The position numbers were made by a program, and so were the translations under genes. The notes under the pieces are model-generated. The model saw only the letters and a program-made list of their open reading frames with translations. It was not told where the DNA came from and did not search any database. From an uncultured Gammaproteobacteria bacterium (GTDB lineage Bacteria > Patescibacteriota > Patescibacteriia > Patescibacteriales > GWC2-42-12): a DNA stretch of 64,000 bases. The stretch lies in NCBI GenBank assembly GCA_964560005.1, contig CAZLKB010000003.1, forward strand, positions 110,951 through 174,950, written 5' to 3'. Within the stretch, counting starts at the first letter, position 1. Every line of letters begins with the position of its first letter. This document shows positions 4,236 to 63,658 of this stretch, piece by piece.

Positions 4236-4243
4236 CCCCCTCT

Positions 4244-4277: not shown

Positions 4278-4282
4278 GTTTT

Positions 4283-4312
4283 TCCGCCAGAGGCGGATCC
4301 GCCTTTGGCGGA
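4283..4312. repeat. 30-nt GC-rich double-hairpin element, intergenic copy
   Basis: tccgccagaggcgga + tccgcctttggcgga, two tandem 15-nt hairpins. Same unit as at 8169, 15403, 23913, 49791, 55874 and 56267. Confidence 0.85.
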
Positions 4313-4319
4313 CTTGTTT

Positions 4320-5225: not shown

Positions 5226-5376
5226 AAGTGATAATTTTAATTTTTAATTTTTAATTTTCAAACAATTTTTAATGTTTTAATTTTCAATTACTTGTATCAC
5301 CTCGCTTAGCGAGAGCGTAAAAATTTAATAATTGATCATTCATTGGAAATTGAAAATTGAAAATTGAAAATTTATT
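5226..5376. repeat. AT-rich inverted-repeat spacer element (gaaaatt dialect) with central GC hairpin
   Basis: Left arm aattttaatttttaatttttaattttcaaacaat and right arm cattggaaattgaaaattgaaaattgaaaatt, with central ctcgcttagcgag. It fills the gap between the gldG-like stop and the DUF4340 start. Confidence 0.75.
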
Positions 5377-7332: not shown

Positions 7333-7398
7333 ATTTATTATTACATTTTTTATTTTCAACTGTCATTTTTAACTTTGAGATTTACATTTTACATTTTC
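7333..7398. repeat. AT-rich post-stop module (aaaatgtaaa dialect)
   Basis: caactgtcatttttaactttgagatttacattttacatttt abuts the permease stop codon. Near-identical strings occur at 28661-28715, 47262-47300 and 49441-49494. Confidence 0.75.
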
Positions 7399-8168: not shown

Positions 8169-8198
8169 TCCGCCCAAGGCGGATCAGCCTCGGGCTGA
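8169..8198. repeat. 30-nt GC-rich double-hairpin element, intergenic copy
   Basis: tccgcccaaggcgga + tcagcctcgggctga. The arms differ from other copies but stay self-complementary. Confidence 0.8.
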
Positions 8199-8384
8199 CA
8201 AACAATGACCAATAAATCAATGACCAATTTTCAAAACAAGGCACAATCTTGCTCATTGAAAATTTAATCATTAAAAATTGTTTAAAAATTACTTGCCTAC
8301 CGGCAGACGGGAATTTAAAATTATTAAATTAAACATTTTGCATTTTGAACTGTCATTTTTCATTTTGATCTTTTCATTTTACAT

Positions 8385-9314: not shown

Positions 9315-9407
9315 ATAAAAGCGAATTTACTGCAAATTAAATCAAATTGAGCGAATTTATCGAATTTAAGGACGATAAATTCGCTTATAATTAGTGTCTA
9401 ATTCGTA

Positions 9408-14337: not shown

Positions 14338-14380
14338 GCCGTGTCACTAAAAGACAAATTGAAAGCTTAGGAGTCAACTA

Positions 14381-14407
14381 AAAAACAGGCGTTAAAAACC
14401 TGTTTTT
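14381..14407. terminator. bidirectional intrinsic terminator between ATPase (+) and ftsX (-)
   Basis: aaaaacagg-cgttaaaa-cctgttttt, with stem aacagg/cctgtt flanked by an A-run and a T-run. Confidence 0.65.
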
Positions 14408-14436
14408 ATATACCAACCTCTTTCCCTTTCATTTGA

Positions 14437-15354: not shown

Positions 15355-15450
15355 GTTAATTTTCAATTTTCCCCCATCCGGGGACAAGCAATTCTCAATT
15401 TTTCCGCCAGAGGCAGATCCGCCTTTGGCGGACAATAAATTTTCAATGCA
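15355..15450. repeat. composite spacer element: ccccatccgggg hairpin + gaaaatt words + 30-nt double hairpin (15403-15432)
   Basis: The reverse complement matches 23883-23994 inside the GT4 gene at >90% identity by eye over about 75 nt (…ggcggaaaaattga[g/a]aattgcttgtccccggatgggggaaaattgaaaatt). Confidence 0.85.
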
Positions 15451-15551
15451 TTAATTTTCAAATAAACGCATCTTTTCTGCGCCTGTTTGAAAATTTAAAC
15501 ATTATATCATTGCAAATTGTTTGAAAATTGTAAATTGTAAATTGAAAATTT

Positions 15552-17849: not shown

Positions 17850-18010
17850 ACATATATAATTATAGCATACTTAATACAAAATTTTCAATTTTCAATTTTT
17901 AAACAATTTACAATTAACTAATGATTAAATTTTCAAACAAAGACCTTATTTATTGTATTGAAAATTGATCATTAAAAAATGTAAAGTGTAAATCTCAAAT
18001 TGAAAATTAT
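17850..18010. repeat. AT-rich inverted-repeat spacer element (gaaaatt dialect)
   Basis: aaaattttcaattttcaatttttaaacaatt ... cattaaaaaatgtaaagtgtaaatctcaaattgaaaatt. Confidence 0.65.
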
Positions 18011-19244: not shown

Positions 19245-19250
19245 AATTAC

Positions 19251-19323
19251 GCCGATGTAGCTCAGCTGGTAGAGCAATGGTATCGTAAACCATAGGTCGT
19301 CGGTTCGATCCCGACCATCGGCT
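19251..19323 (+). tRNA. tRNA-Thr (anticodon CGU)
   Basis: Acceptor GCCGATG/CATCGGC. Anticodon arm ATGGT-ATCGTAA-ACCAT. T arm GTCGG-TTCGATC-CCGAC. Confidence 0.9.
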
Positions 19324-19331
19324 CAATTAAT

Positions 19332-19362
19332 AAAATCAGCCTATATTTAGCGCTGATTTTTA
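19332..19362. terminator. hairpin terminator between tRNA-Thr (+) and convergent minus-strand gene
   Basis: aaatcagc ... gctgattttt, with stem aatcagc/gctgatt followed by a T-run. Confidence 0.5.
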
Positions 19363-19369
19363 TTTATTG

Positions 19370-23276: not shown

Positions 23277-24539
23277 TTATATAATTCTAGAAGCACCGCT
23301 GAATAGTTTCAAGTATTCTTTGGCGGTTTTCTCCCAGCTAAATTTTTTCGCCTGCGCTAGACCGCGCGCGATTAATTTATTTCTCAAATTATTATCAGTT
23401 AAAATTTCGGCCATAGCACGAGCCAAGTCATTAATATTATAAGGGTCAACCATTATTGCGGCGTCGCCCGCGACTTCAGGCAAACTGGAGGAGAAGCTGG
23501 CGATTACCGGCAAGCCGCTGGCCATGGCTTCCAGTGGCGGAAAGCCAAAGCCTTCATAAAAGGAAGGGTAAACAAACACGCTCGCCAAATTATATAAATA
23601 AACTTTGTCCTCGCCGTCCACATAGTTTAAAAATTTTATATCATTTTTAAATTCCGACCGCTCCCATTCTTTATAAATGCTTTTGCTTTTCCACCCCCTG
23701 TTCCCGGCGATGACCAACTTTATATTTCTTAATTCTAAATTCTGACTTCTGACTTCATTATAGGCTCTAATTATTCCGTCCACGTTCTTCCGCGGCTCAA
23801 CCGTGCCAAGATAAAGTATAAATTTGTTCGGTAAATTATATTTATTTTTTACTTCCATCAAATTTCGTTCATCAGTATTTTGTTTGAAAATTTGAGAATT
23901 GTGATTTGTTTTTCCGCCATAGGCGGATCCGCCTATGGCGGAAAAATTGAAAATTGCTTGTCCCCGGATGGGGGAAAATTGAAAATTGATTTTCCTGTAT
24001 TCCTCCCCTACCCCCGCGTAGATTACTTTTATGTTACTTTCATTCACTCCGCACAGCTCGACAATATCCCGTTTAGTATTTTCGCTCACTGCCACTATAG
24101 TATTGAAACGCCTAACTAATTTTTTCACATTTACCATGCTATGCCAAAAATTCTTGCGCGCGGAAAAAAATTCTGGATACCTTAAAAATGATAGGTCATG
24201 AACCGCAATTAAGCTCCTAGCGCCCCCCGACATGCCGATAAAATTAATATGAGGCATGAAAAATACATCAACGCCCAGCGCTTGATCTATTTTCGGATAA
24301 TTAAAAAACTTAAAATACAAGTAATTTAATAATTTATTGGGGTAATTATATTTGACTAATTTAACATTATCGGCTGGAAATCGCGGGATACTCAGACAAT
24401 CGCCAAAACAATTATAAAACAGCCGGTATTGGTTATTATTATCCAGCCTTATAATCTCCCTGATTAAATTCAACGCATATTCGGACACGCCGCTATATTG
24501 CGCGTCCATCAGAGTTCGTATGTCAATGCCTATTTTCAT
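23277..24539 (-). CDS. GT4-family glycosyltransferase carrying an in-frame repeat-element insertion
   Basis: N-terminal MKIGIDIRTL and C-terminal GT4 core ILYLGTVEPRKN ... PSFYEGFGFPPLEAMASGLPVI. It also has about 34 extra residues encoded by the repeat at 23883-23994. Confidence 0.8.
   Translation of the reverse strand: MKIGIDIRTLMDAQYSGVSEYALNLIREIIRLDNNNQYRLFYNCFGDCLSIPRFPADNVKLVKYNYPNKLLNYLYFKFFNYPKIDQALGVDVFFMPHINFIGMSGGARSLIAVHDLSFLRYPEFFSARKNFWHSMVNVKKLVRRFNTIVAVSENTKRDIVELCGVNESNIKVIYAGVGEEYRKINFQFSPIRGQAIFNFSAIGGSAYGGKTNHNSQIFKQNTDERNLMEVKNKYNLPNKFILYLGTVEPRKNVDGIIRAYNEVRSQNLELRNIKLVIAGNRGWKSKSIYKEWERSEFKNDIKFLNYVDGEDKVYLYNLASVFVYPSFYEGFGFPPLEAMASGLPVIASFSSSLPEVAGDAAIMVDPYNINDLARAMAEILTDNNLRNKLIARGLAQAKKFSWEKTAKEYLKLFSGASRII
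23883..23994. repeat. composite spacer element inserted inside GT4 CDS (contains 30-nt double hairpin 23913-23942)
   Basis: tttccgccataggcggatccgcctatggcggaaaaattgaaaattgcttgtccccggatgggggaaaattgaaaatt is the reverse complement of the ftsX-upstream element at 15355-15450. Confidence 0.85.
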
Positions 24540-27290: not shown

Positions 27291-27412
27291 ATTAAAGCCA
27301 ATTAAATGCTAATGAAAAACGAATTAAAGCGAATTTATTGATCTGGTTTATGAACTCATTCGTTTTAATTCGTTTTAATTCGCGGCTAATTCGTTTTTAT
27401 ATTTAACTAATC

Positions 27413-27975
27413 TCAGGGCAAGCTATAAGCCGGATTCTGTTCCGCCAATTGGCGGAGATGATCATCTATCTAGCCATGATGTTGCCATCATGGTCAAGCG
27501 AGCCACTTTTCGTTACACCGTAAAAACGGCGTAGTTTGCTCTTGCTCCAGGTAGGGTTTGCCGCGTCTCTCTGTCGCCAGAGGACGAATCCTGTAATTTA
27601 AGTTAATCGGATATCCTTTATAACCCAAATTTCAGAATACTTTTCACCTTTCACCGCTGCTGCGCAGCAGAAATCCCAATAGCCAAGAGCCAACATCCAA
27701 ACAAATTTCAAATTCAAATTGCCGAAATATAAAATTAATTTATATTTGAGTATAGAAATTTGGAATTTATTTGGACATTGGAAATTGAAAATTGGTCATT
27801 CCGCTGCGGAGCAGCGGTTAGTATTGTCTCTGTGGCACTTTCCCTGCTCCGCTATAAACGGAGCGGTGGATATTATCCATTACCATTTTCCAGCGCATAA
27901 TGCGCTTTTAGAGTCCGGACTTTCCTCGCCGATTAAAATAAAATTTTAACCGGTGTAATCATCCGCTTACCCTGA
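27413..27975 (-). ncRNA. rnpB: RNase P RNA (bacterial type A) with greatly expanded AT-rich P12 region
   Basis: On the minus strand, CR-I is GAGGAAAGTCCGGACTC (rc of 27911-27927), CR-V is ACAGAATCCGGCTTATAG (rc of 27423-27440) and P1 is agggtaagc/gcttgccct. GTGCCACAGAGACAA and GGTGAAAGGTGAAAAG resemble the E. coli M1 P10/11-J11/12 strings. Confidence 0.85.
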
Positions 27976-28640: not shown

Positions 28641-28715
28641 CAATGTAAAATTAAAAATTTCAAATTTTATCATTTTACATTTTCAACTGTCATTTTTAAC
28701 TTTGATATTTACATT

Positions 28716-30440: not shown

Positions 30441-30454
30441 AATAATTATTCCCA

Positions 30455-30528
30455 CAAATCTACAAATCTGCTACGAATATTACAAATATATTCGTAATAT
30501 TCGTTGTGAATTCGTAGATTTGTGGGGT
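30455..30528. repeat. AT-rich inverted-repeat spacer element (caaatctaca dialect)
   Basis: cccacaaatctacaaatctgctacgaatattac pairs with gtaatattcgttgtgaattcgtagatttgtgggg. Same dialect as 57027-57150. Confidence 0.8.
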
Positions 30529-35155: not shown

Positions 35156-35371
35156 GGTAAAATGTAAAATTAAAATCTCAAAATGAAAAATGACAATGAA
35201 AAGTGTAAAATTTTAATTTCTAATATCTAATCAATAACCAGTTTTTAATGTCTAATTATCAAAAATTAGAAATTGGTCATTGGGATTTGACCCGCCTCGC
35301 GTCGACGAGCGACAGCGAGTCGAGGCGGGTTAGGTCAATTAGGAATAAGAGTAATCAGACATTTTGCATTT

Positions 35372-36451
35372 TTAACTGTCATTTTTCATTTTGAGATTTA
35401 CATTTTTCATTAAAAGTTCTTTCACTTCTCTGGCAATCATCAGCTCCTCATCGGTCTTTATCGCCAGCATGGGCAACGAGCCTAAGCATTTGATTTTTTT
35501 CATGACTTGATTTCGCGTCACCGGATTACCCGAGCCGATACTGCCGGTAAAAATTATCGCTTCCGCCTTGCCTTCAAGACCGACCCAATAGGCGCCAATA
35601 TATTTAACCAGGCGATTAATAGCTAAATCAAAAGCCGACTTCGCCTCCTGATCGCCCAGCGAGGCGCTGGCCAGAAGTTCTTGATAATCGGTCAAGCCGG
35701 TTAAGCCTTTTATTCCGGAATTTTTATTTAATAAATTATAAAGCTGATCCACTTTAGCCTGGTTTACTTCTCCGGGTAGATTTTTTAAAAGTTTAAATAT
35801 TATCCCCGGATCCAAATCTCCGGATCTGGTTATCATCACTAGTCCCTCCAGCGGCGTAAAGCCCATAGAAGTATCAATCGGCTTGCCGTTTTTTACGGCG
35901 GTAATGGACCAGCCGCCGCCTAAGTGGCAGCTAATCAAGCTTATCTTATTAATCTTCTTTTTTAACAGTCTGGCGGCCTCGGCCATAACGAATTCATGGG
36001 AAATACCGTGAAAACCGTAGCGATGAATATTATATTGCTCGGTGATCTCGCGAGGCAAGGCGTAAAATTTCGCCGTATCCGGCAAATCGTGAAAAAAAGC
36101 CGTATCAAAAACCGCGACCTGTTGCGCCTGCGGTAAATAGCTAATCGCCGCTTTTATGCCGGCTAAATTATAAGGGTTATGCAGCGGAGCCAGATCGTTC
36201 AACCGTTCCAATTCAATCAAATTGCTGTCATTGATTAACAAGGGTTTAAAAAACTTATTACCGCCATGAACCACCCTATGGCCGACTGCCGCCAGATCTC
36301 TTAAATCTCCGATTTCCCTTAAAACCAATTTTATCGCCGTAAAATGATCTTTTACATTTTTAATCTGGCCCTGCTTAATTTCTTTTTCATCATGGCTAAA
36401 TAATTTATATTTAACCGAAGTAGAACCGGAATTTAGAGATAAAATAGACAT
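35372..36451 (-). CDS. ackA: acetate kinase (compact form)
   Basis: ILSLNSGSTSVKYKLF, HRVVHGG, FDTAFFHDLP, YGFHGISH, SCHLGGGWS, TSMGFTPLEGLVMITRSGDLDP, IFTGSIGSGN. The last 12 codons (MKNVNLKMKNDS) read into the spacer repeat. Confidence 0.85.
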   Translation of the reverse strand: MSILSLNSGSTSVKYKLFSHDEKEIKQGQIKNVKDHFTAIKLVLREIGDLRDLAAVGHRVVHGGNKFFKPLLINDSNLIELERLNDLAPLHNPYNLAGIKAAISYLPQAQQVAVFDTAFFHDLPDTAKFYALPREITEQYNIHRYGFHGISHEFVMAEAARLLKKKINKISLISCHLGGGWSITAVKNGKPIDTSMGFTPLEGLVMITRSGDLDPGIIFKLLKNLPGEVNQAKVDQLYNLLNKNSGIKGLTGLTDYQELLASASLGDQEAKSAFDLAINRLVKYIGAYWVGLEGKAEAIIFTGSIGSGNPVTRNQVMKKIKCLGSLPMLAIKTDEELMIAREVKELLMKNVNLKMKNDS

Positions 36452-36564
36452 AGTAAGTTTAAAATGTAAAAATCAAAATTAAAAATTATGGAGTGAAAAT
36501 TTTTTTAAAAATTTTCACGGAGTAATTTTACAATAATTTTACATTTTGAGATTTTCATTTTTAA

Positions 36565-38154
36565 CTATATTAAACTCCGTCCGGTCATTTCCGCCGGTTT
36601 ATCCAAGCCCATTACTTTTAGAATCGTCGGCGCCACATCAGATAAGATGCCTTGAGGCTGAACCAGACTTAAATCTCCGCCAGGCGCGTCACCCAGCGAC
36701 AAGCTCTTGCCTTCATAAGATTTACCAATAATAATAAACGGCACCGGATTAGCCGAGTGCTCTTTATCTATCATGCCGGTTTGCATATTAAACAGGCCTT
36801 CGGCATTGCCATGATCCGCGGTAATAAATAACATGCCGGACTTGCTTAAAACGGATTTCACGATTCTGCCAAGGCATTTATCCACCGTTTCCACGGCCTT
36901 AACCGTGGCTTTTAAGTTGCCGGTGTGGCCGACCATATCGGCATTGGCGAAATTTATCAAAATGAAATCGTAACTATCCTTTCCAACCGCCTCAACTACT
37001 TTATCCGTAATCGATAGAGCCGACATTTCCGGCTGAATATCATAGCTGGAAACCGCCGGGGATGAAATTAATATATGGTCTTCGCCTTTAGACTTTTCTT
37101 CACGGCCGCCGTTAAAAAAATAAGTCACATGGGCGTATTTTTCCGTTTCCGCGATTCTTAACTGCTTTAATCCGGCCTTAGCCAGAACCTCTCCTAAGGT
37201 ACTCCGTAAAATTTCTGCCGGAAAGACTATCTCCATGGGCAAGCTGGCTTCATATTCGGCAAAACCGGCGAAATATATATTCAAATATTTTTCTCTCTTA
37301 AATTTTTCAAAACCGGGCAGAACTAAGGCCTTGGTCAGCTGGCGCGCCCGGTCAGGGCGATAATTAAAAAATATAACCGCGTCGCCGTCTTCTATTTTAG
37401 CTATGGGTTCTTTATCTTCGGTGATTACCGTCGGCATGAATTCCTCGTCATAAATTTTTTTCTTATAGCTGTCTAAAATCGCTTTCTTTACGGACTCATT
37501 TTTTTCTCCCAAGCCTCGCACCATCACATCATACGACTTAGCCGTCCTGTCCCAATGATTGTCCCGATCCATGGCGTAAAATCTTCCGTGAAGCGAAGCG
37601 ATTTTCCCATCGGTGCCTTCCAAAGATTTTTCAATTTCTTGAATAAAATTCAAGCCGGAATTAAAAGGCGTGTCCCGGCCGTCTAAAATCGCGTGGATAA
37701 AAAAATTCTTCACTTTATTATCCTGAGCCAGGTTAATCAGCGCTTGAAGATGCTCCAGTGAAGAATGAACGCTGCCCGAAGAAACCAAACCGATAAAATG
37801 CAGCTTTGAATTGTTATTTTTTACCCGCTCAATCGCTTTCAGCAAAACTTTATTCTTATAAAAACTTCGGTCGGCTATCGCTTTATTAATTCTGGGTAGG
37901 TTTTGATAGAGAATTCTCCCCAATCCCAAATTGAGGTGGCCGACTTCGCTATTGCCCGATTCGCCCCAAGGCAAACCCACGCCTTCGCCCGAAGCCACTA
38001 GAGTAGCTGAAGGATATTTGGTTAAATAACCGTTGATATTCGGCGTATTCGCCTGGCTGATGGCATTGCCGGAATAGGGAGTGGTTATACCCCAGCCGTC
38101 AAGCACTATCAACACCACGGGCTTAGGACGGGTTGATTGTTGTTGATCTGCCAT
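36565..38154 (-). CDS. gpmI: 2,3-bisphosphoglycerate-independent phosphoglycerate mutase, paralogue 1
   Basis: LIVLDGWG, GNSEVGHLNLG (catalytic Ser), FANADMVGHTGN, TADHGNAE. Confidence 0.9.
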   Translation of the reverse strand: MADQQQSTRPKPVVLIVLDGWGITTPYSGNAISQANTPNINGYLTKYPSATLVASGEGVGLPWGESGNSEVGHLNLGLGRILYQNLPRINKAIADRSFYKNKVLLKAIERVKNNNSKLHFIGLVSSGSVHSSLEHLQALINLAQDNKVKNFFIHAILDGRDTPFNSGLNFIQEIEKSLEGTDGKIASLHGRFYAMDRDNHWDRTAKSYDVMVRGLGEKNESVKKAILDSYKKKIYDEEFMPTVITEDKEPIAKIEDGDAVIFFNYRPDRARQLTKALVLPGFEKFKREKYLNIYFAGFAEYEASLPMEIVFPAEILRSTLGEVLAKAGLKQLRIAETEKYAHVTYFFNGGREEKSKGEDHILISSPAVSSYDIQPEMSALSITDKVVEAVGKDSYDFILINFANADMVGHTGNLKATVKAVETVDKCLGRIVKSVLSKSGMLFITADHGNAEGLFNMQTGMIDKEHSANPVPFIIIGKSYEGKSLSLGDAPGGDLSLVQPQGILSDVAPTILKVMGLDKPAEMTGRSLI

Positions 38155-38283
38155 AATAAAATAAATTTTTAATTTTTAATTTTATAAATAATACTAAAAT
38201 TTTTAATATAAAAATTAAGATATTAAAAATTATTTACAATATTAAAAATTATTTACAAAATTAAAAATTATAAAAATTAAAAA
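38155..38283. repeat. AT-rich inverted-repeat spacer element (aaaatta dialect)
   Basis: aatttttaatttttaattttataaataat pairs with attatttacaaaattaaaaattataaaaattaaaaatt. It lies between the two gpmI paralogues. Confidence 0.75.
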
Positions 38284-39867
38284 TTATTTTATTAAGCTCT
38301 TTCCAGTCATCTCCGCCGGCTTTTTAATATTTAATAATTCCAGTATGGTCGGCGCGATATCACCCAAGACTCCATTGCTTCTCAATTTAGTTTTTTTATC
38401 AATTCTATTATTTATTAAAATAAAAGGCACCGGATTGGTTGAATGTTCGGTATTGATTTCGCCGGTTTTTAAATTAATCATCTCTTCAATATTGCCATGA
38501 TCAGCCGTCACTAAAATCGTGCCGTTAACGCTTAGATAAGCCTTAACTATTTCTCCTAAATACTTATCAACTTCGTGGCAGCTTTTTACCCCGGCAGCCA
38601 GGTTACCCGTATGGCTTATCATGTCCGGCGCGGCAAAATTCAAAACGGTAAATTCGTAATTATGCTTGCCTAGATTTTTTATAACCTCCCTGGCCAATTT
38701 CTCCGAGCTCATGGCCGGAGTTATATCATATGATTTTACATCCGGTGAAGGAATCACCAGCCTGGCTTCCCGGGCGACCGGATCGGCATAGCCACCGTTA
38801 AAAAAATAAGTCACATGAGCGTATTTTTCCGTTTCGGCCAGATAGAGCTGTTTTAAATTCATTAACTGCATTGGCAGCGTCTGTTTTATATCTACGCTTG
38901 GGTAAGCGGTTAAAATATTATCTAAATCCGGCCCGAAATCAGTCATGGCCACGAATAATAAATCTTTCAAATTCTTCTTTCTGATAAAAGAGCCGGGGTT
39001 TAATTTATTGAAATCTTTCTGTACAAAAACCTTGGCGAATTGTCTGGCCCGATCAGACCTTAAATTAAAAAAAATAACGCTGTCGCCGCTGCCGATCCTG
39101 GGCAAAGGCTTGCCGTTCCTAGTTATAATATAGGGCTCAATAAATTCATCGCTCAAGCCCCGGTTATAGCTTTCGGTGATAGCGGCTTGGGCGCTTTCCG
39201 CTTTCCTGCCGATGCCGCTGGTTAATGCTTCATAGGCCTGTTCGGTTCTGGCCCAAGCCTTCTTCCTGTCCATGGCGTAGAATCTGCCGATGATGCTAGC
39301 AATGGCTTCGCCGTTCTTAAAAACTTTTTGAATATCATCAACTAATTTTAAAGCGGCATATTGAGGCGAATCGCGGCCATCGGTAAATAAATGCAAATAG
39401 ACTTCCTTTATTTTATTTATTTTTACGAAAGACAATAAAGCCAGCAGGTGATCCGGATCGCTATGCGCGCTCATACCGTTGGAGATCATGCCCATTAGAT
39501 GAAGCCTGGATTTATTTTTGTTGACATGGCGGATAGCTTCTCGGAAACTCGTATTTTTAAAAAATGTGCCTTCGTTGATGCTTTTTGATATTTTAACCAC
39601 ATCCTGCTCAACGATTCTGCCGGCGCCGATATTCATATGCCCGGCTTCGGAGTTGCCGGCTTGCAACGGCGGCAAACCGACCTCTTTGCCGGAAGCGCTA
39701 AGAATTGTATTGGGATATTTTTTGATCAGTCCGTCCATGGTCGGGGTCTTGGCTAAAGAGACGGCATTGCCCTGGCTCGGTTTGGCTATGCCCCAACCGT
39801 CAAGGATAACTAGAATCATGGGTAGATTATTCTTCAATGATTTATACTCATTTCCATGTTTTATCAT
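38284..39867 (-). CDS. gpmI: 2,3-bisphosphoglycerate-independent phosphoglycerate mutase, paralogue 2
   Basis: LVILDGWG, GNSEAGHMNIG, FAAPDMISHTGN, TADHGNIE. Roughly half the residues are identical to paralogue 1 by eye. Confidence 0.9.
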   Translation of the reverse strand: MIKHGNEYKSLKNNLPMILVILDGWGIAKPSQGNAVSLAKTPTMDGLIKKYPNTILSASGKEVGLPPLQAGNSEAGHMNIGAGRIVEQDVVKISKSINEGTFFKNTSFREAIRHVNKNKSRLHLMGMISNGMSAHSDPDHLLALLSFVKINKIKEVYLHLFTDGRDSPQYAALKLVDDIQKVFKNGEAIASIIGRFYAMDRKKAWARTEQAYEALTSGIGRKAESAQAAITESYNRGLSDEFIEPYIITRNGKPLPRIGSGDSVIFFNLRSDRARQFAKVFVQKDFNKLNPGSFIRKKNLKDLLFVAMTDFGPDLDNILTAYPSVDIKQTLPMQLMNLKQLYLAETEKYAHVTYFFNGGYADPVAREARLVIPSPDVKSYDITPAMSSEKLAREVIKNLGKHNYEFTVLNFAAPDMISHTGNLAAGVKSCHEVDKYLGEIVKAYLSVNGTILVTADHGNIEEMINLKTGEINTEHSTNPVPFILINNRIDKKTKLRSNGVLGDIAPTILELLNIKKPAEMTGKSLIK

Positions 39868-40013
39868 AATTACACAAAATTTTCAATTTTTAATTTTTAA
39901 TTTCTAAACAATGATTCAATGTCTAAATTTTTAAACCGAATTAGATAGACATTTGAAAATTGAAAATTAATTCATTGAAAATTGTTTAAAAATTGAGAAT
40001 TGAAAATTGAAAA
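39868..40013. repeat. AT-rich inverted-repeat spacer element (gaaaatt dialect, conserved core)
   Basis: aatttctaaacaatgattcaatgtctaaattttt ... cattgaaaattaattcattgaaaattgtttaaaaattgagaattgaaaattgaaaatt. Near-identical cores occur at 42138-42280 and 58150-58313. Confidence 0.85.
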
Positions 40014-41321
40014 TTATTTTATATTTTCCTCAATCTCCATTAATCTATTATATTTCGCCAATCTCTCGCCTCTGGATAAGGAGCCGGCCTTGATATAATC
40101 GGCTTGAACCGCCACGGCCAAGTCGGCGATAAAGTCGTCCGTGGTTTCTCCGGAACGATGCGAAATAATGATTTTATAGTTATGCCTTTGAGCCAGCTTA
40201 ATGCAAGCGATAGTTTCCGATAAGGTACCGACTTGATTGGGTTTTATTAAAATAGCGTTGGCGGAGTTTTCTTTTAAGCCTCGCCTTAAGCGCTCAACAT
40301 TGGTAACGAATAAATCATCTCCTACCAGCATTAATCTGTCACCCAGCTCCTTATTTAATTTTTGCCAGCCGGCCCAATCGTCTTCAGCCAAAGGATCTTC
40401 AATGAAAATAATCGGGTATCTTCTAAACCATTCGGCATATAGACCGGACAAGGTGCCGGCCGTGAAGCTGGCCTGATCCAGCTTAAAGATATACTTGCCG
40501 TCTGCTTTATTATAAAGCTGGGACGAACCGACATCTATGCCCAAATTAACCTCTTCGCCCGGTTTATAGTTTGATTTAATAATCGCCGTCATGATTAATT
40601 CTATGGCCTGGATGCTGGAGGTCATATCGGGCGCGTAGCCGCCCTCACTGCCAACATCAGTATCGTATCCGGCCCGCTTCAAGATAACGCCCAAAGTATG
40701 AAAAATCTCCGCGCCCATCCTTACTTGTTCGCTTAGACTGGTATTCTTGGTAGGAATTATCATAAATTCCTGAAAATCCAAATTAGTGTCAGCGTGTTTT
40801 CCGCCGTTAAAAATATTAAAACAAGGAGTAGGTAATTTTACCCCCTTTAACAAAGGCCCGTCTCGCTTGGCGGGAGCCGAGGCGGAGGGTGAGGGGGATT
40901 TAAAGGCAAATTTATCGGCGATATATTCATAAAGCTCTTCATTGTTTGCTAAGGCGCCGGCGCGAGCGCAAGCTAGCGACACGGACAGAACCGCATTAGC
41001 GCCTAACTTGCTCTTATTCTTGGTGCCGTCCAGTTTAATCATCAATTCATCTATCTTTTCTTGTTTACCAATATCAAAACCCGCCAGCTTCGGCGCGATT
41101 TTCTTTTCAACATTTTTTACGGCATTTAATACTCCCAGACCGCCATATCTTTTTTTGTCCCCGTCGCGCAATTCTAAAGCTTCATGTACGCCGGTGGACG
41201 CCCCCGACGGCACGCCGGCCTTTGTCCACAAACCATTGTCCAGCATCACTTTAGCTTCAACCGTGGGGTTGCCTCGCGAATCTAAAATTTCGCGAGCTGA
41301 AATTTTTTTAATTTTAGGCAT
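40014..41321 (-). CDS. eno: enolase, with about 20-aa GC-hairpin-derived insertion
   Basis: MPKIKKISAREILDSRGNPTVEA, FNIFNGGKHAD, SHRSGETTD, IKAGSLSRGERLAKYN. Confidence 0.95.
   Translation of the reverse strand: MPKIKKISAREILDSRGNPTVEAKVMLDNGLWTKAGVPSGASTGVHEALELRDGDKKRYGGLGVLNAVKNVEKKIAPKLAGFDIGKQEKIDELMIKLDGTKNKSKLGANAVLSVSLACARAGALANNEELYEYIADKFAFKSPSPSASAPAKRDGPLLKGVKLPTPCFNIFNGGKHADTNLDFQEFMIIPTKNTSLSEQVRMGAEIFHTLGVILKRAGYDTDVGSEGGYAPDMTSSIQAIELIMTAIIKSNYKPGEEVNLGIDVGSSQLYNKADGKYIFKLDQASFTAGTLSGLYAEWFRRYPIIFIEDPLAEDDWAGWQKLNKELGDRLMLVGDDLFVTNVERLRRGLKENSANAILIKPNQVGTLSETIACIKLAQRHNYKIIISHRSGETTDDFIADLAVAVQADYIKAGSLSRGERLAKYNRLMEIEENIK
40842..40901. repeat. GC-rich hairpin repeat inside eno CDS
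   Basis: The minus-strand sequence tccgcctcggctcccgccaagcgagacgggcc matches the intergenic tccgcctcggcttcgcctttaggcgagacgggcc at 2842-2875. It encodes KSPSPSASAPAKRDGPLLKG. Confidence 0.7.
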
Positions 41322-41378
41322 AAAAAATTATGTCATAGCGAAAAGCAACGACAAGTTTAATAATTCATTATAAGCCGG

Positions 41379-42137
41379 CTACAAAATTTCGTATTCAACC
41401 GTGGCGATTATTATGATTTCATTGCTGCCGGCTTCAATAGCCGGAGAAACCCCGCCGGCCGAGACTGATTTTTCCATCAACCGATAATTATCATAATATG
41501 GGGTTGGCGGCTGGGTAGCTGATTCGCTGAAAGAAATTATATTCCCCAGCTTGACGCCCACGACTTTCGCTAAAGCGTCGGCTTTTTCCTTGGCTTGCTT
41601 AATGGCCATTTCCCTGGCCTGCTGTTTTAATATTTCCGGCTGATCAATTTCAAACGACAAATTGCCAATCTGATTCATGCCAATCTGCCCGGCCGCGTCT
41701 AAAATTTGACTGACCTTATCCAAGTCTCTAACCTTGATGCTTAAATCCTGGCTAACCGTATAGCCTTTTAAAATTTGGCGGCCGCTGGTCCAATCATACT
41801 GCGGCGAGATGGAATAATTTAAAGTTTTAATATCCAGCGGATCAATTTTAAAATCTTTTTTTAATTTTTCCACCATGCCGTTCATCTTGGTGGTATTGTC
41901 GGTTTGCGCCGCGGCCACGGTATTTTTTAATATGGAATAGCCCAGTTGGATTTTCGCCACATCGGGAACAGCGGTTACTTTGCCTTCTCCCGCCATACTA
42001 ATAGAGTGCGGAGTTTTTGGGCTAACTCCAATATAATCATGCGCTTTAACCGCATTCCAGCTTAAAAGAGCCAAATAAATTGAGCCCAGCGTTAAAAAAA
42101 CACCGATAAAGATTGTCACGATTTTGTTTGGAATCAT
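41379..42137 (-). CDS. SIMPL-domain (DUF541) periplasmic protein
   Basis: N-terminal anchor, GEGKVTAVPDVAKIQLGYS and C-terminal IEAGSNEIIIIATVEYEI, typical of the SIMPL/26-kDa periplasmic immunogenic protein family. Trimmed to ATG. Confidence 0.7.
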   Translation of the reverse strand: MIPNKIVTIFIGVFLTLGSIYLALLSWNAVKAHDYIGVSPKTPHSISMAGEGKVTAVPDVAKIQLGYSILKNTVAAAQTDNTTKMNGMVEKLKKDFKIDPLDIKTLNYSISPQYDWTSGRQILKGYTVSQDLSIKVRDLDKVSQILDAAGQIGMNQIGNLSFEIDQPEILKQQAREMAIKQAKEKADALAKVVGVKLGNIISFSESATQPPTPYYDNYRLMEKSVSAGGVSPAIEAGSNEIIIIATVEYEIL

Positions 42138-42280
42138 AAAATTAATTTTCAATTTTCAATTTCTAATTTCTAAACAATGATTTAATGTCTTAATTTTCAA
42201 ACAATGCTATTTTCATCATTGAAAATTAATTCATTGAAAATTGTTTGAAAATTGAAAATTATAAATTGAAAATTTTATTA
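42138..42280. repeat. AT-rich inverted-repeat spacer element (gaaaatt dialect, conserved core)
   Basis: aatttctaaacaatgatttaatgtcttaattttcaaaca ... cattgaaaattaattcattgaaaattgtttgaaaattgaaaatt. Confidence 0.85.
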
Positions 42281-42325
42281 TTTAAAATATTAAAATTTTA
42301 TAAGATACTTTATCTATGTTTTCCA

Positions 42326-43477
42326 CTATTTCACAATCCCCTTAAGCCCGGGCATGGGCTCGCCGCCCAAGAAAGCCAGCATGGCGCCGCCACCGGTAGA
42401 AACCCAATCAATAAAATTTTCCATTTTCGTAAGCTTCACCGCCTCAATAGTTTCTCCGCCGCCAACAACGCCGAAAGCCTGGCCGGTGGAACGAGCGGCG
42501 ACCAGTCGGGCAACGGATAAAGTGCCGTGCTTAAAATGTTCGTTTTCAAAATAACCCAACGGGCCGTTCCAAATAAGAGTGTTAGCCTGCTTAATATAGT
42601 GCGCGAACAACCTAACGGTTTTAGGGCCGATATCTAAAATTATATCATTTTTTTCCACTCGGGATACCGTTTTAACCCAAACCCGGCCGCCTTTTATTTT
42701 CTTAGCTACGACAACATCAACCGGCAAAATAATGTTCCGATGCCGCTTAATTAAGCCGGCCGCCAGGCTGACGCTATTTTTATCGGCTAAAGATTTTCCG
42801 ATTTTATAACCATGAGCGGCGATAAAATTATTCGCCAAGGCGCCGCCGATTAAAACCCGGTACGATTTTTTCGCTAAGCTGTTTAATAAAACAATCTTAG
42901 TCCCTATCTTAGCGCCGCCGATAATTGAAATTAAGGGCTGCTTCGGCTTTAAAACTTTTTCTAAATTTAAAATCTCTTTTTCCAGGAGAAGGCCGGCGTA
43001 ACCGGGTAAATATTTTTTAATCGCTTGAACCGTAGCATGATTGCGGTGGCAGACGGCGAAGGCGTCGTTAACATAAATATCAGCCAGTTCGGCCAGGTTT
43101 CTGGCGAATCTTTTATCATTTTTTTCTTCGCCTTGGTTTAATCGCAAATTATCTAAAAGTATGATCCGTCCGTCTTTTTGATTAACCGACTCTATAACCT
43201 TCTCATTTAAACCGCCTGGTATGAATATGACTTTCTCGCCCAATAGCTCCGATAATCTCTTGGCTATCGGTTTGGCCGTGGCTTTTTCGTCAGTCAGATG
43301 GCTGGCTATGATTAACCGGCAATTATGCCTTAATAAATAACGAATCGTCGGCAAGGTCATGACAATTTTATATTCATCCTTGATTTCCCTGCTCTTAATG
43401 GGTACATTAAAATCAACGCGTAAAAAGACGGTTTTAGAGGTTAAATTCTTTATTTGTCTAATGGATTTAACTACCAT
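42326..43477 (-). CDS. pgk: phosphoglycerate kinase
   Basis: FLRVDFNVP, IIGGAKIGTKI, WNGPLGYFE, GGGETI. Start set at the ATG (MVVKSIRQ) that lies 13 nt downstream of an extended -10 element. Confidence 0.9.
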   Translation of the reverse strand: MVVKSIRQIKNLTSKTVFLRVDFNVPIKSREIKDEYKIVMTLPTIRYLLRHNCRLIIASHLTDEKATAKPIAKRLSELLGEKVIFIPGGLNEKVIESVNQKDGRIILLDNLRLNQGEEKNDKRFARNLAELADIYVNDAFAVCHRNHATVQAIKKYLPGYAGLLLEKEILNLEKVLKPKQPLISIIGGAKIGTKIVLLNSLAKKSYRVLIGGALANNFIAAHGYKIGKSLADKNSVSLAAGLIKRHRNIILPVDVVVAKKIKGGRVWVKTVSRVEKNDIILDIGPKTVRLFAHYIKQANTLIWNGPLGYFENEHFKHGTLSVARLVAARSTGQAFGVVGGGETIEAVKLTKMENFIDWVSTGGGAMLAFLGGEPMPGLKGIVK

Positions 43478-43490
43478 AAAGGTTGTTATT

Positions 43491-43499
43491 ATTATAACA
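43491..43499 (-). promoter_or_regulatory. extended -10 element (TGtTATAAT) just upstream of pgk ATG
   Basis: The reverse complement of attataaca (43491-43499) is tgttataat. The spacing leaves only about a 6-7 nt leader and no Shine-Dalgarno sequence. Confidence 0.4.
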
Positions 43500-43585
43500 T
43501 AAACCGTTAAAAACAAAAACCCATCCGACCAATTCGGCCAAACAGGTTATATTGTTTGATATCGAAAGCTTAAATTAAAGTTTTT

Positions 43586-44761
43586 TCATTTCAAGTCCCC
43601 TAAAATTATTCTAACCTCTTTTTCTACTCCATCGCGTAAAATTATTAAATTTATCGTTTCACCGCTTAAATGATCCTGGATAATATTCGTTAAGTCATGA
43701 TCTTTATCTAAAGCGGTTCCGTCAACGGAAACAATAATATCGCCCTCGCGCAAACCGGCTTTTTCGGCCGGACTGTTTTTCTTAACCGCCAAAACATTAT
43801 CCGCCTTATAAATAATCGCGCCTTTTTGCCAATAAATATTTTGACCGTTAACCTCAATTAAATCCGATAAATCAATATAACTAACGCCTAGGCTGGGCCG
43901 GCCGGCCGTCTGATTCTTAAATAGGCTTTTTATCACTCCGGTTAGATGGCTAAAAGGTTCAACCTCCCCCTTATCGTTGACCAACCCTAAAGCATCTCCG
44001 GCTAAATTAAAAATTATTGAACCTTTAAATTCCACGGGCAATTTTTCATTTAACGCCAGCTTCTCCGAAAAACTGTCGCTTGATTTTACTAGTCCCGCAG
44101 ATTGGCTGAAACCGGCCACCGAGGAAACCGAGTTTAAGCCCAGCCAGTTGACGGCTACCGCCAGACTGCCGTCTTTAACCGCTTGGCTTTCCGCGAATTT
44201 TCTCACCTTTAGATCTTTGGCCTGAACATGAATAAAATTAAAGGCTGTCAAATTATCGGCTACCGCCTTGTCTATCTCTAAAATTTTTTTATCTTTAGTA
44301 ATAACCACATAATCTTTATAATTTTTAACTAAGGCCAGGCTAGTCACTATCCAGCCGTCCGAGGTTAAAATAAACCCCTGCCCGCTCGACTCGTTCAATT
44401 TATAAAAATTTTCTATACGAAAAACCTTGTTTGGCGCGGCTGATTTTTGCTGGTCATCTTTAAGAACGATCTTTTTATAAATACCGACTAAGCTATCGCC
44501 CACTGAACCGATAATCTCATCAACTTTCGCGTCCTGCTGAACAATCACATTTTTGGCGTTGGCTATCACCAAGCCTTGGTCTAAATATTTTCCTTTGGAA
44601 AAATCCAAATCTCCGGAAAGCGGCCAGCCGAATAAAGGGTCAATAAAATAAGACCTGGCAATGATCGCTCCGACCAGGCCGCTGCCTAAACCAAAAATAC
44701 AAACCACTAATATTATGGCCACTAAATTATGTTTTTTAAAAAATTCTTTAAAACGCTTCAT
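43586..44761 (-). CDS. HtrA-like protein with PDZ domain but degenerate catalytic triad (probable pseudoprotease)
   Basis: GQGFILTSDGWIVTSLALV replaces G.GF....G.I.TN.HV (no His). FNLAGDALGLV replaces GNSGGPL (no Ser). The PDZ segment SPAEKAGLREGDIIVSVDG is intact. Confidence 0.7.
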   Translation of the reverse strand: MKRFKEFFKKHNLVAIILVVCIFGLGSGLVGAIIARSYFIDPLFGWPLSGDLDFSKGKYLDQGLVIANAKNVIVQQDAKVDEIIGSVGDSLVGIYKKIVLKDDQQKSAAPNKVFRIENFYKLNESSGQGFILTSDGWIVTSLALVKNYKDYVVITKDKKILEIDKAVADNLTAFNFIHVQAKDLKVRKFAESQAVKDGSLAVAVNWLGLNSVSSVAGFSQSAGLVKSSDSFSEKLALNEKLPVEFKGSIIFNLAGDALGLVNDKGEVEPFSHLTGVIKSLFKNQTAGRPSLGVSYIDLSDLIEVNGQNIYWQKGAIIYKADNVLAVKKNSPAEKAGLREGDIIVSVDGTALDKDHDLTNIIQDHLSGETINLIILRDGVEKEVRIILGDLK

Positions 44762-44815
44762 AGATTGCTGATTTTTTATTTTAGTAAATTTATTGCTATG
44801 AATTGTTGCTGCTAT

Positions 44816-44953
44816 TGATTTTTGTTTTGGCTAAATTGATTTATTTTTGAAGCGAGGCTTCGTCGTGAGCTCAGCCGAACGGACTGACCGGCTGGCACAT
44901 AAAGAATTTGATCCGCAGCGAAAAAATAAATCAATTTAGCCAAAACTCTACGA
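44816..44953. repeat. MITE-like inverted-repeat element, family B copy 2
   Basis: gttttggctaaattgatttatttttgaagc ... ggactgaccggctggcacataaagaatttgatccgcagcgaaaaaataaatcaatttagccaaaac. It is in the opposite orientation to copy 1 (21608-21768). Confidence 0.75.
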
Positions 44954-44979
44954 CTGCAATTTGCGCAATCCATAAATTA

Positions 44980-45741
44980 CTATATCCACTTAGCGGTTAA
45001 TAAAACCGCCAATAAACTGATTGATCCCAATATTAAATACATTTTTACCTTGGCCGCGTCGAGTTTATCCAGCAAATGATTTTTTACCAGTCCGATAATC
45101 ACATAATAGCAGATCGCCAGAGTCAAACCGGAAATATTGTAGTTAAAGGGCAAGAATGAAATGGACCAAAATAATTCAACCAATATCAAACAGCTGATTA
45201 AAATACAGAGCAAGCCGGACCTCAGTTCTATTTTATTCACCCAAATTATCTGGTAGACCAATAAAATATCCGCTAATATTATGATCGGCACCAGCCAGGA
45301 AATCGGCAAATCAATAAATGACTGCAAGCCATAGATAGCGGCCGTCAGTAGAAAAAAGGCCGACCAATTGATATAAGCGGAAATATTTTCTATACTGAAG
45401 ACTTCATAAACCGCGGGGTTAAGCAAGTAATAATAAACTTGTCTTAAATATAAATACAAAAATACGACATTAAAAGCAAGCAGCAACTGGATGATAAGCT
45501 TATTGCTTATAAAAACCGAGTAAGCTATCACCGCTGTTGAAAAAACGGCCGGTAAAATCAAGTAATTCCACCAGCTCTTATCAATCGTGCTGGCTCTGCT
45601 GAATTGCCAGACGGCGAAAAAAATCAATAAATTAATCAAAACCGCGGCTACATAAATCAATTTCGGGGAAAAAAAATATATTTCCTCAAATAAAAAAATC
45701 AACAAAGGTATTAACGGGGTTAAAAAACGATTAAATTTCAT
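44980..45741 (-). CDS. hypothetical polytopic membrane protein
   Basis: 253 aa and about 8 hydrophobic helices. No motif. Confidence 0.5.
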   Translation of the reverse strand: MKFNRFLTPLIPLLIFLFEEIYFFSPKLIYVAAVLINLLIFFAVWQFSRASTIDKSWWNYLILPAVFSTAVIAYSVFISNKLIIQLLLAFNVVFLYLYLRQVYYYLLNPAVYEVFSIENISAYINWSAFFLLTAAIYGLQSFIDLPISWLVPIIILADILLVYQIIWVNKIELRSGLLCILISCLILVELFWSISFLPFNYNISGLTLAICYYVIIGLVKNHLLDKLDAAKVKMYLILGSISLLAVLLTAKWI

Positions 45742-47171: not shown

Positions 47172-47300
47172 GGAATAAATTTAAAATTAAAATCTCAAAA
47201 TGTAAAATGACAATGTAAAATCTAAAATTGAACTCAAAAGGCTTATTTATAACTTTGCATTTTAAATTGTCATTTTTAACTTTGAGATTTACATTTTACA
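47172..47300. repeat. AT-rich inverted-repeat spacer element (aaaatgtaaa dialect)
   Basis: aaatctcaaaatgtaaaatgacaatgtaaaatc pairs with gcattttaaattgtcatttttaactttgagatttacattttacatt. Confidence 0.8.
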
Positions 47301-48509: not shown

Positions 48510-48684
48510 ATTTATAAATTATAAATCCTAATCGTGCTACTGGATTTGGTTTTGAGCGCACGCTAAAATATCAATTTTTAAATTTTGTAATTTTTAATTT
48601 TTAAATAATTTTTAATACCTTAATTTTTAATAAAATTATTTCTTAAGATATTTGGATATTATAAAATTAAAAATTGCAAAATTT

Positions 48685-49392: not shown

Positions 49393-49494
49393 AAAAAAAT
49401 AAAAATGAAAAAATAAAAATGTAATTTGTAGTTAAAAAACTGATAATTTTACATTTTTAACTGTCATTTTCAACTTTGAGATTTACATTTTACA

Positions 49495-49770: not shown

Positions 49771-49772
49771 GG

Positions 49773-49834
49773 TCGGGATACTGGGAATTGCCAGCCCGAG
49801 GCTGGTCCGCCTTGGGCGGAAACCCAGTCTACAC
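49773..49834 (-). pseudogene. duplicated 3-prime fragment of tRNA-Pro interrupted in the T loop by the 30-nt double-hairpin element
   Basis: tcgggatactgggaattg (18 nt) and aacccagtctacac (14 nt) are identical to 49879-49910 of the intact tRNA-Pro. They are separated by ccagcccgaggctggtccgccttgggcgga (49791-49820). No 5-prime half is present. Confidence 0.8.
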
Positions 49835-49878
49835 TCGCCGTTACACGGTTAAACTGACATCCTAATTAATATTACATG

Positions 49879-56992: not shown

Positions 56993-57026
56993 ATTCTAAC
57001 AAGTTTTATATTTCTAAAATGTAATT

Positions 57027-57150
57027 CACCCACAAATCTACAAATCAACTACAAATATTACTAATTAATAAATATAAATTCCGTTAATTAATATTTAAAT
57101 ATTGTAAATAAATATTTGTATTATTCGTAGCTAATTTGTAGATTTGTGGG
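57027..57150. repeat. AT-rich inverted-repeat spacer element (caaatctaca dialect)
   Basis: cacccacaaatctacaaatcaactacaaatattac pairs with gtattattcgtagctaatttgtagatttgtgggt. It lies between the nuoF-like stop and the hydA start. Confidence 0.8.
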
Positions 57151-58149: not shown

Positions 58150-58313
58150 AAAATAAATTTCCAATTTCTAATTTTCAATTTCTAAACAATGACTTAATGT
58201 CTAAATTTTCAAACATAATTATTTGGCGTTTTCAAATTGAAAATTCTGTCATTGAAAATTGTTTGAAAATTGAGAATTGAGAATTGAAAATTCTAGAGAC
58301 TTTCAATTATTTA
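58150..58313. repeat. AT-rich inverted-repeat spacer element (gaaaatt dialect, conserved core)
   Basis: aatttctaaacaatgacttaatgtctaaattttcaaaca ... gtcattgaaaattgtttgaaaattgagaattgagaattgaaaatt. Confidence 0.85.
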
Positions 58314-60343: not shown

Positions 60344-60487
60344 AGAGAAATTTCTAATTTTTAATTTCTAATTTTTAAATAATGCTTAAATTTCTAATTA
60401 TTAAAAATTAAAGCATTAAAAATTACTTATAAAATTATTTATCCTCCATAGCGCAAGCGAAGGGGGACAAAATTAAAAATTAAAAAT

Positions 60488-61285: not shown

Positions 61286-61406
61286 AATATTGTTAAGAAT
61301 TTTTAATTTTATAATTTTTGAATTTTTAAATAATATCTAATTTTTAATATTTAACATTATGATATTAAAAATTATTTACAAAATTAAAAATTAAAAATTT
61401 GTACTC

Positions 61407-63074: not shown

Positions 63075-63158
63075 TCCTTAATATAATTTTCAAACTATAA
63101 TAATTCATCGCGAATTTATTCGTTAAATTCGTTTTAAATTCGTGTATTATTCGTTTTT

Positions 63159-63449: not shown

Positions 63450-63658
63450 CTACACCATTTTAAAGACGGCATTCTTTATAGTATGGCGAAATATTGCTAT
63501 ACTCTATAGAGAGAGCCGTTTTTATTTATAAAGTTTGGGCTAAGCTTATTAAATTTGCGAACAAATTGAATTTCTATAAAGTGGTTTGAAAATTAATTAA
63601 TTATATCATTGAAAATTAATTAAAAATTGAGAATTGAAAATTGAAAATTATTATTTTT

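Follow-up and report, generated by a model that had tools for sequence, protein, structure and literature searches.

An AT-rich palindromic element between eno and gpmI, probably a member of a new dispersed repeat family in operon spacers of Falkowbacteria-like Patescibacteria

Why should two consecutive glycolytic genes, eno (40014-41321) and gpmI (38284-39867), be separated by a long AT-rich palindrome that reaches almost from the stop codon of one to the start codon of the other? The question arises in a stretch of 64,000 nt (hereafter the window; contig CAZLKB010000003.1, assembly GCA_964560005.1) whose enolase finds its best named matches in 'Candidatus Falkowbacteria' and 'Patescibacteria group'. 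All coordinates are positions in the window, gene identities were assigned by Pfam, and 'sense' or 'transcript strand' refers to the strand of the flanking genes, which is the minus strand, on which nearly all window genes lie. The preliminary description of the element proposed terminator-plus-promoter cassettes, RNase III processing sites, or RNA hairpins that bring the upstream stop codon next to the downstream start codon; a mobile repeat family was not considered. [quoted passage not shown]

The eno-to-gpmI element (copy A, 39878..40015, minus strand) has two close counterparts in the window, copy B in the pgk-to-SIMPL spacer (42144..42274, minus) and copy C in the spacer between gap and a NuoF-like gene (58156..58292, minus). 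All three share a 33-nt left core, exact at 39899-39931, 42165-42197, and 58177-58209, and a 24-nt right core, exact at 39973, 42232, and 58250; dinucleotide-preserving shuffles lead one to expect none of these matches. Thus, the three copies stand where they had been reported, and Pfam agrees with the flanking genes that had been named, but the epithet 'near-identical' fits the cores only, as identity over the full length is 83-86%. The claim that the right arm adjoins the downstream ATG likewise had to be turned around: the genes are on the minus strand, and it is the left end, in window coordinates, that abuts the ATG. In copy A, the first AATTTTC heptamer overlaps the eno TAA stop codon, and the 3' arm ends 10 nt short of the gpmI ATG. 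Each copy forms an imperfect hairpin of ~50 bp on either strand (-28 to -39 kcal/mol, z -3.7 to -7.5); for copy A, the values are -28.1 kcal/mol in the sense (z -4.4) and -39.3 kcal/mol in the antisense direction (z -7.5), and for copy C, the two strands give z-scores of -3.7 and -5.2. The 21 full copies were used to build a covariance model (R1), which scores the three at 99-110 bits on the minus and 70-77 bits on the plus strand (copy A, 98.9 and 70.8 bits; copies B and C, 105.8 and 109.9 bits), and more diverged copies in the window score 36-64 bits.

The design common to these copies is simple. The element measures 105-150 bp, typically ~130 bp, has a GC content of 12-25%, and contains no open reading frame (ORF). 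On the transcript strand, its 5' half consists of three to four AATTT-N-N heptamers (AATTTTC type), followed by AAACAAT, TTTC, AATG, and AATTTTCAA, and then by a variable centre, which often contains a nested GC-rich hairpin. The 3' half mirrors this order, with TTGAAAATT, CATT, ATTGTTT, and approximately four N-N-AAATT heptamers (RAAAATT type), after which 0-14 nt remain before the ATG. The two arms are 70-89% complementary and thus constitute terminal inverted repeats.

Elements of this design are dispersed well beyond the window, with ~30 further copies in metagenomes and in other genomes of the candidate phyla radiation (CPR). The 23-nt core CATTRARTCATTGTTTAGAAATT, searched in species-representative genomes, was found at three loci (one in a Falkowbacteria metagenome-assembled genome, and others on two contigs of one other such genome), and a slightly looser core, searched in metagenome contigs, was found at 29 loci. 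With the exception of one chance match inside an ORF, two duplicates, and several half elements, these loci hold full palindromes of the same design, and the genes around them are unrelated from locus to locus. In the outside copies, the first heptamer typically lies 0-12 nt from a stop codon, often with an overlapping TAA, and the ATG follows 0-14 nt after the last heptamer. The core is in the sense orientation relative to the genes at ~20 loci and in the antisense orientation at ~8. R1 also found copies that the core search had not picked (L024:12560, L006:166, and L013:1793, where L-numbers label the contigs compared with the window), of which the copy at L013:1793 is inverted relative to a neighbouring copy on the same contig; an R1 search of L001 and L037-L040 returned no match. 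No clustering of copies by genome was seen, i.e., the window copies are 84-88% identical to copies of other genomes and 83-86% identical among themselves. A copy on L010 was tried as an ortholog of copy C and rejected, because the downstream genes are unrelated. Viral contigs scanned with both cores gave no match.

Orthologous junctions were compared as well. Six relatives (L001, L004, and L037-L040), whose enolases are 76-79% identical to that of the window, have the common gene order PDZ, pgk, SIMPL, (pilin-like gene), eno, gpmI, gpmI, ackA, murJ. The pgk-SIMPL spacer, 188 nt in the window, is 24 nt in L001, 20 nt in L004, 25 nt in L037, and 17 nt in L038, with no element in any of the four; by this comparison, copy B is a gain specific to the lineage of the window. 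The eno-gpmI junction varies in another manner: it is 146 nt in the window, and in the relatives it ranges from a gene overlap (L039) through a mini-palindrome of 44 nt (L040) and an eroded copy of 75 nt (L037 and L038) to a copy of 113 nt in which a GC hairpin is nested (L004); L001 instead carries a 144-nt palindrome that belongs to another family. The L004 spacer differs from that of L040 only by one extra heptamer and an extra block of 62 nt flanked by the direct repeat TTAGAAATTG, as expected from deletion between heptamers. Conservation of element positions in related genomes, on which the preliminary description had made its reading depend, therefore presents a divided picture, since the pgk-SIMPL copy is absent from four relatives and the eno-gpmI site is occupied, eroded, or empty depending on the relative. 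As a separate observation on this gene block, the tandem gpmI (iPGM) paralogues downstream of eno (36565-39867 in the window) are kept in every relative examined.

Palindromes of other families vary between relatives as well. Between the close relatives L037 and L038, whole palindromes of other families differ in four spacers; the empty L038 spacers measure 5-10 nt, and in both cleanly aligned cases, the insertion lies directly at the stop codon. The spacer between the second gpmI and ackA holds the same other-family palindrome in the window (36452-36564) and in L037 (14551-14660), inverted relative to the genes, and this site in L038 comprises 10 nt only.

Taken together, the evidence fits invasive DNA better than it fits terminators, promoters, or structured RNA. 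The elements are short and non-coding, have terminal inverted repeats, occur in many dispersed copies, and are present or absent at orthologous sites, all of which are traits of MITEs, although strict MITE membership is not established, as neither a target duplication nor, among the window proteins, a transposase was found. In the history that we consider most plausible, the elements would spread by insertion and would settle in compact operons, in the very short AT-rich gaps between genes; such insertion into tiny spacers would in itself explain the fit between stop codon and ATG without any function. They would then be transcribed within the polycistronic mRNA, and they could persist if a self-pairing AU-rich insert leaves downstream expression possible in an organism that initiates translation without Shine-Dalgarno sequences. 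Single copies would subsequently erode via deletion between heptamers.

Two sets of observations weigh against this reading. The first concerns mobility itself. No consistent target-site duplication was detected in the flanks of 22 copies (although their AT-rich, low-complexity ends could mask one of 1-2 nt), nor was a recognisable one present at the filled and empty sites of L037 and L038. The ~55 window proteins include no transposase or integrase domain, and no longer element with matching ends was seen, so mobility is deduced from the distribution only. The second set concerns conservation that is unexpected for mere debris. Across 21 copies, the five positions AATTT/AAATT are invariant in every heptamer, and the remaining two positions vary freely. 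Even between genomes whose synonymous sites are saturated, copies are 79-88% identical. L004 and L040 are identical at 44/44 positions of their shared eno-gpmI spacer (L004:11273-11385; L040:2342-2385), in contrast to coding flanks that are ~80% identical and fourfold sites that are 52% diverged; L037 and L038 differ at 4/75 and 1/29 spacer positions vs. 19-33% of fourfold-degenerate sites. These invariant heptamers, the identity across saturated genomes, and the two spacer comparisons therefore indicate purifying selection or gene conversion rather than neutral junk. AT-biased mutation may explain part of this conservation; even so, to judge from these alignments, selection on specific positions, gene conversion, or recurrent seeding by a conserved master copy must be at work. 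This leaves room for a sequence-specific function, and it is probable that a role has been gained by some copies, e.g., that of an intercistronic stem-loop or a protein-binding array; the conservation of AATTT every 7 bp may point to a binding protein.

Such a protein is central to the proposal that the heptamer arrays are double-stranded DNA sites bound by a protein of the host or of the element itself, such as a transposase, nucleoid protein, or regulator, in which case the sequence of the arms, rather than their pairing, would be under selection. The invariance of AATTT/AAATT every 7 bp in both arms is what such a site would look like, as is the independent variation of the other two heptamer positions between the arms. 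At these variable positions, G never occurs in the 5' arm and C never in the 3' arm, which amounts to a duplex-symmetric constraint; furthermore, the function would be independent of orientation, and conservation across genera is far above the neutral expectation. Nevertheless, no candidate protein was identified, the several palindrome families with other heptamers in the same genome would call for several proteins, a 7-bp period is unlike the DNA helical repeat, and part of the invariance may be explained by strong AT mutation bias. We therefore regard this proposal as rather improbable.

A function at the RNA level, which is compatible with a mobile origin, would require the element to act as an intercistronic hairpin that serves cleavage (e.g., by RNase III), protection of the upstream mRNA, or coupling of translation from stop to start. 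Cleavage or protection would set the relative levels of the cistrons, whereas in the coupling variants, a terminating ribosome would melt the stem, or the folded stem would join the stop and start codons. The position of the element is suggestive in this respect, since in most sense-oriented copies 0-12 nt separate the stop codon from the stem, and 0-14 nt separate the stem from the ATG. The window, L004, L040, L037, and L038 all retain a hairpin of some kind between eno and gpmI, with a spacer more conserved than coding DNA, and the lack of Shine-Dalgarno sequences, together with spacers of ~5 nt or overlaps in compact relatives, suggests that internal cistrons depend on coupling. It should also be noted that an influence on mRNA stability is reported for co-transcribed repeats of the ERIC type and for similar ones (PMC3184786).

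The structure itself, however, does not behave as a constrained RNA. In the 21-copy alignment, tested on a hand-checked structure of 50 pairs against a null in which 3' partners were shuffled among sequences, 88% of cells are paired vs. 89.2% in the shuffles, the covariation score is 0.055 vs. 0.075, and compensatory cells number 6 vs. ~20 expected. Since covariation is below the shuffled expectation, pairing results from the conserved palindromic consensus and not from compensatory change. Indeed, the variable heptamer positions are independent on the two arms and mismatch at chance rate, being unpaired in ~1/3 to 1/2 of cells. The mRNA strand folds no better than its complement: the difference in hairpin stability between sense and antisense is 0.3 +/- 6.6 kcal/mol, with the sense strand more stable in 10/19 copies. 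Rfam searches of the whole window at the gathering threshold, and of 39700-42400 with E up to 1, returned only tRNAs and RNase P. With no covariation, no strand bias in stability, and no Rfam match, a structure-constrained RNA was rejected as a class; the results fit a putative duplex-symmetric DNA element and lend the RNA no support. The distribution of copies agrees with this, as both orientations exist, one orthologous palindrome is inverted between genomes, the same junctions function with spacers of 0-25 nt in relatives, and copy B begins 51 nt past the pgk stop codon. The RNase III and stop-to-start roles proposed earlier thus receive no positive support from the checks that were feasible at the sequence level (covariation, strand preference, and orientation), and an intercistronic RNA function of this type is, in our estimate, unlikely.

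One variant of coupling deserves separate mention because of the way in which this lineage appears to initiate translation. The preliminary description had remarked that no Shine-Dalgarno sequence is present at the elements. This is correct, but a Shine-Dalgarno-like core (GGAG, GAGG, or AGGA) is found upstream of only 4/55 genes in the window; its rarity is general to the genome, and its lack is therefore not a property of the element. In several genes, e.g., pgk, 16245-17849, and 11767-14337, TGnTATAAT occurs 9-13 nt before the ATG, so close that leaderless or very short-leader mRNAs are implied. In a lineage without Shine-Dalgarno sequences and with near-leaderless mRNAs, it is conceivable that internal cistrons depend on termination-reinitiation and that palindromes are kept, or are uniquely tolerated, because the folded stem sets the upstream stop codon beside the downstream AUG. 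If true, terminating ribosomes could reinitiate across the base of a 130-nt insert, in a bacterial equivalent of ribosome shunting, and this would explain why several unrelated palindrome families all span the distance from stop codon to start codon; we nevertheless consider it a speculative and improbable account. Irrespective of the mechanism, the family provides a natural experiment on how 130-nt hairpins between cistrons are tolerated in operons that lack Shine-Dalgarno sequences.

The remaining role that had been suggested, a terminator-plus-promoter cassette, would have the hairpin end the upstream transcript and the ATG-side arm serve as the promoter of a leaderless mRNA. A consensus scan of 36000-45000, which covers copies A and B, found no terminator-like site in either copy, their stems being almost wholly A-T; it found no sense-strand promoter match in copy A, and the only one in copy B lies in the 5' arm. 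Copies A and B thus lack the GC-rich stem plus T-run of an intrinsic terminator, and hexamers at a constant place in all copies, facing the downstream gene, as expected of a sigma-70 promoter, were not found; both classes were rejected. The genuine signals of this clade look quite different and are near consensus, namely TGnTATAAT promoters and, at the convergent junctions 4236-4319, 14338-14436, and 19245-19369, terminators with a GC-rich stem and T-run. There are nonetheless some features that a cassette would explain, such as a weak promoter match in copy B (TTAGAA, 17 nt, GAAAAT, 7 nt, ATG), of which copy C has a variant with GGAAAT, a T-run that often follows the 3' arm, and the existence in this genome of the near-leaderless genes mentioned above. 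Most often, 7 nt lie between the last heptamer and the ATG (6/18 copies, counted by hand), but this mode results from the heptamer unit itself. Moreover, promoter activity of a palindrome would be directed equally into the upstream gene, and relatives express the same genes without the element. The proposal is not supported by the copies scanned, and we consider it highly improbable.

TIGR arrays (TIGR-Tas), which occur in the CPR, were considered as well. Their tandem units yield 36-nt guide RNAs with two spacers each and lie beside a Tas gene that encodes a Nop domain (PMC12045711). The present elements are single and dispersed and have a 7-nt period, and no Nop-domain protein was found by Pfam; this class was rejected.

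If the elements are indeed mobile repeats, they may be set beside families known from other bacteria, a comparison made by description. ERIC sequences (also named IRU), repeats of Enterobacteriaceae or Vibrionaceae to which no sequence relationship is expected, occur in both orientations, include size variants that arise by internal insertions and deletions, and are unusually conserved between species. In Enterobacteriaceae, they are imperfect palindromes of ~127 bp that are intergenic and co-transcribed and have reported effects on mRNA stability, and the ERIC-type sequences of Photorhabdus and Xenorhabdus have TA-flanked termini and target duplications (PMC3184786). The present elements resemble ERIC in size, palindromic form, intergenic and probably co-transcribed site, and occurrence in both orientations; they differ in their GC content of 12-25%, their heptamer-array arms, and their Patescibacteria host, and the TA flanks or target duplications of the ERIC-type sequences were not seen. 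Correia elements are processed by RNase III and duplicate a TA target. In Neisseria, these elements (CREE) measure 104-157 bp, have terminal inverted repeats and many intergenic copies whose presence varies between close strains, and carry functional promoters and a binding site for integration host factor (IHF) (PMC3184786). Size, terminal inverted repeats, dispersed intergenic copies, and presence/absence polymorphism are shared by the present elements, whereas the promoter, IHF-binding site, and TA target duplication were not found in them.

The parallel with RPEs may extend to genes. RPEs insert in frame into protein genes and also into RNA genes. They are palindromic repeats of 105-146 bp (PMC3184786), a size similar to that of the present elements, and related heptamer and GC-hairpin modules are found here within a glycosyltransferase gene, where they keep the reading frame, and in RNase P RNA, at the P12 tip. 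Unlike RPEs, however, the full AT-rich palindrome is only intergenic, and the in-frame modules consist of direct AATTTTC units and GC hairpins rather than full copies; the 3' arm, in which GAAAATT is repeated, contains TGA in all reading frames. There is no relationship in sequence or in host. Finally, REP/BIME repeats and REPINs, which are mobilised by RAYT transposases, are extragenic palindromes inside operons that can stabilise upstream mRNA and leave no target-site duplications; REPs are GC-rich stems of only 20-40 nt that include a conserved tetranucleotide, and their genomes encode a RAYT. The location within operons and the apparent absence of target-site duplication are shared, but the present elements are ~130 nt long and AT-rich, and the window contains no Y1-transposase domain. 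Literature searches found no description of such repeats in the CPR.

CPR genomes are usually described as small and streamlined. In this one lineage, palindromes of several families occupy many junctions: they split textbook operons (ftsEX, rpsB-tsf, glycolysis, and an ABC transporter), lengthen RNase P RNA, and add peptides to enzymes, and in close relatives the same junctions are spanned by 5-25 nt. As a marker, the family could serve to type strains and to track genome dynamics in uncultured Patescibacteria. It also carries a warning for gene callers, as start codons are often mis-set inside elements, and in-frame inserts are real.

The more diverged members of the family listed in the preliminary description are borne out by right-core variants (at most three mismatches, 0 expected) at 5251, 8269, 15508, 17892, and 63607 and by R1 scores of 36-64 bits. 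The first of them (5233..5372, no strand assigned; core variant 5251-5274), between the ABC_transp_aux and DUF4340 genes, scores 63.7 bits on the plus and 58 bits on the minus strand, such that both orientations score about alike, and has a small GC hairpin in its centre. The copy between the ABC ATPase and ABC-2 permease genes (8183..8308, minus; 36.5 bits; core variant 8269-8292) adjoins a family B unit and contains a GC double hairpin within its own 3' arm. Between ftsE and ftsX, a copy with a GC hairpin in its centre occupies 15436..15551 (no strand assigned; 38.3 bits at 15415-15543; core variant 15508-15531). The fourth (17880..18008, minus; 40.7 bits; fold z -4.5) lies between the start of the D-Ala-D-Ala carboxypeptidase gene and a tRNA-Gly gene, which run in opposite directions. 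The last is a half element with a single arm, downstream of rpmE (63560..63658, no strand assigned; core variant 63607-63630), which belongs to the direct-repeat families D2 and D5. Diverged copies thus split genes of the ABC-transporter cluster as well as ftsE from ftsX, and rpsB and tsf are separated by a palindrome that belongs to another family. This is the basis on which essentially every cistron had been said to be insulated by a hairpin. Hairpins are indeed very common, but among the 54 gene junctions, 25 have significant structure (z < -3), a count that takes in tRNA genes, classical terminators, and several unrelated palindrome families, and 13 are shorter than 50 nt.

Related modules also occur inside genes. 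A family-like hairpin (27672..27800, minus; R1 36.0 bits, E 3.5e-4), AT-rich, with 7-nt periodicity, and the longest inverted repeat of the window, is inserted at the tip of helix P12 in the RNase P RNA gene. This RNA (27410-27974, minus) has 565 nt compared with the 367 positions of the model, and the Rfam alignment places ~170 extra nt at the P12 tip. Elsewhere in the same RNA, the helix after P12 has 43 nt vs. 7 in the model. In the gene of a GT4 glycosyltransferase (23277-24539), an in-frame insert (23880..24000, minus) of AATTTTC heptamers and GC hairpins adds ~43 residues exactly in the interdomain linker (Pfam domains at residues 16-177 and 231-393). Homologues ~70-77% identical have an insert of variable length, or none, at the linker and at two other hotspots, and the peptide NFQFS, which is AATTTTCAATTTTC translated, recurs in several of them. 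Judging from these sites, palindromic modules appear to occur where harm would be small, i.e., in the gap between stop codon and ATG, at the tip of an RNA helix, or in a protein linker. Invasive repeats such as RPEs show the same behaviour.

A GC-rich double hairpin of ~38 nt, CCGCCAGAGGCGGATCCGCCTTTGGCGGA (CCGCCNNNGGCGG-A-TCCGCCNNNGGCGGA), occurs in spacers and nested in the AT-rich palindromes. It is found at 4275, 8161, 15395, 23905, and 49783, and twice inside the Fe-hydrogenase ORF 55142-56992 (55866-55903 and 56259-56296), where the Pfam match spans ~64 extra residues.

Other palindrome families of the window are built from AAAATGT/AAATCTC units, from AATTTTT units, or from ACGAATT/ACAAAT units with a period of 8-11 nt. 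A second repeat family, AAAATGTAAAATGTAAATCTCAAAGTTAAAAATGACAG, has 7-nt periodicity with repeated ATG-TAA start-stop units and occurs singly or in inverted pairs (7360-7398, 8312-8391, 28664-28715, 35338-35417, 47172-47300, and 49393-49494). In a third, with AATTTTT/AAAAATT units, GC content falls to 3-8%; its members (38155-38283, 48510-48684, 60344-60487, and 61286-61406) include those in the gpmI-gpmI and rpsB-tsf gaps. The fourth, with ACGAATT/ACAAAT units (9315-9407, 27300-27391, 30451-30526, 56993-57150, and 63109-63158), may be intrinsically curved, since its unit spacing of 8-11 nt is near the DNA helical repeat. A GC-richer palindrome family, which starts with GTCATTGCGAG or GTCATTGCGGG, is represented at 2778-2903 in the window, L001:11288-11431, and L037:646-766 and differs in presence between L037 and L038. 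Lastly, downstream of tRNA-Pro, 49771-49877 holds an apparent duplicate of a tRNA 3' half (GTGTAGACTGGGTT...AATTCCCAGTATCCCGACC), in which the GC double hairpin stands at the place of the T-loop.

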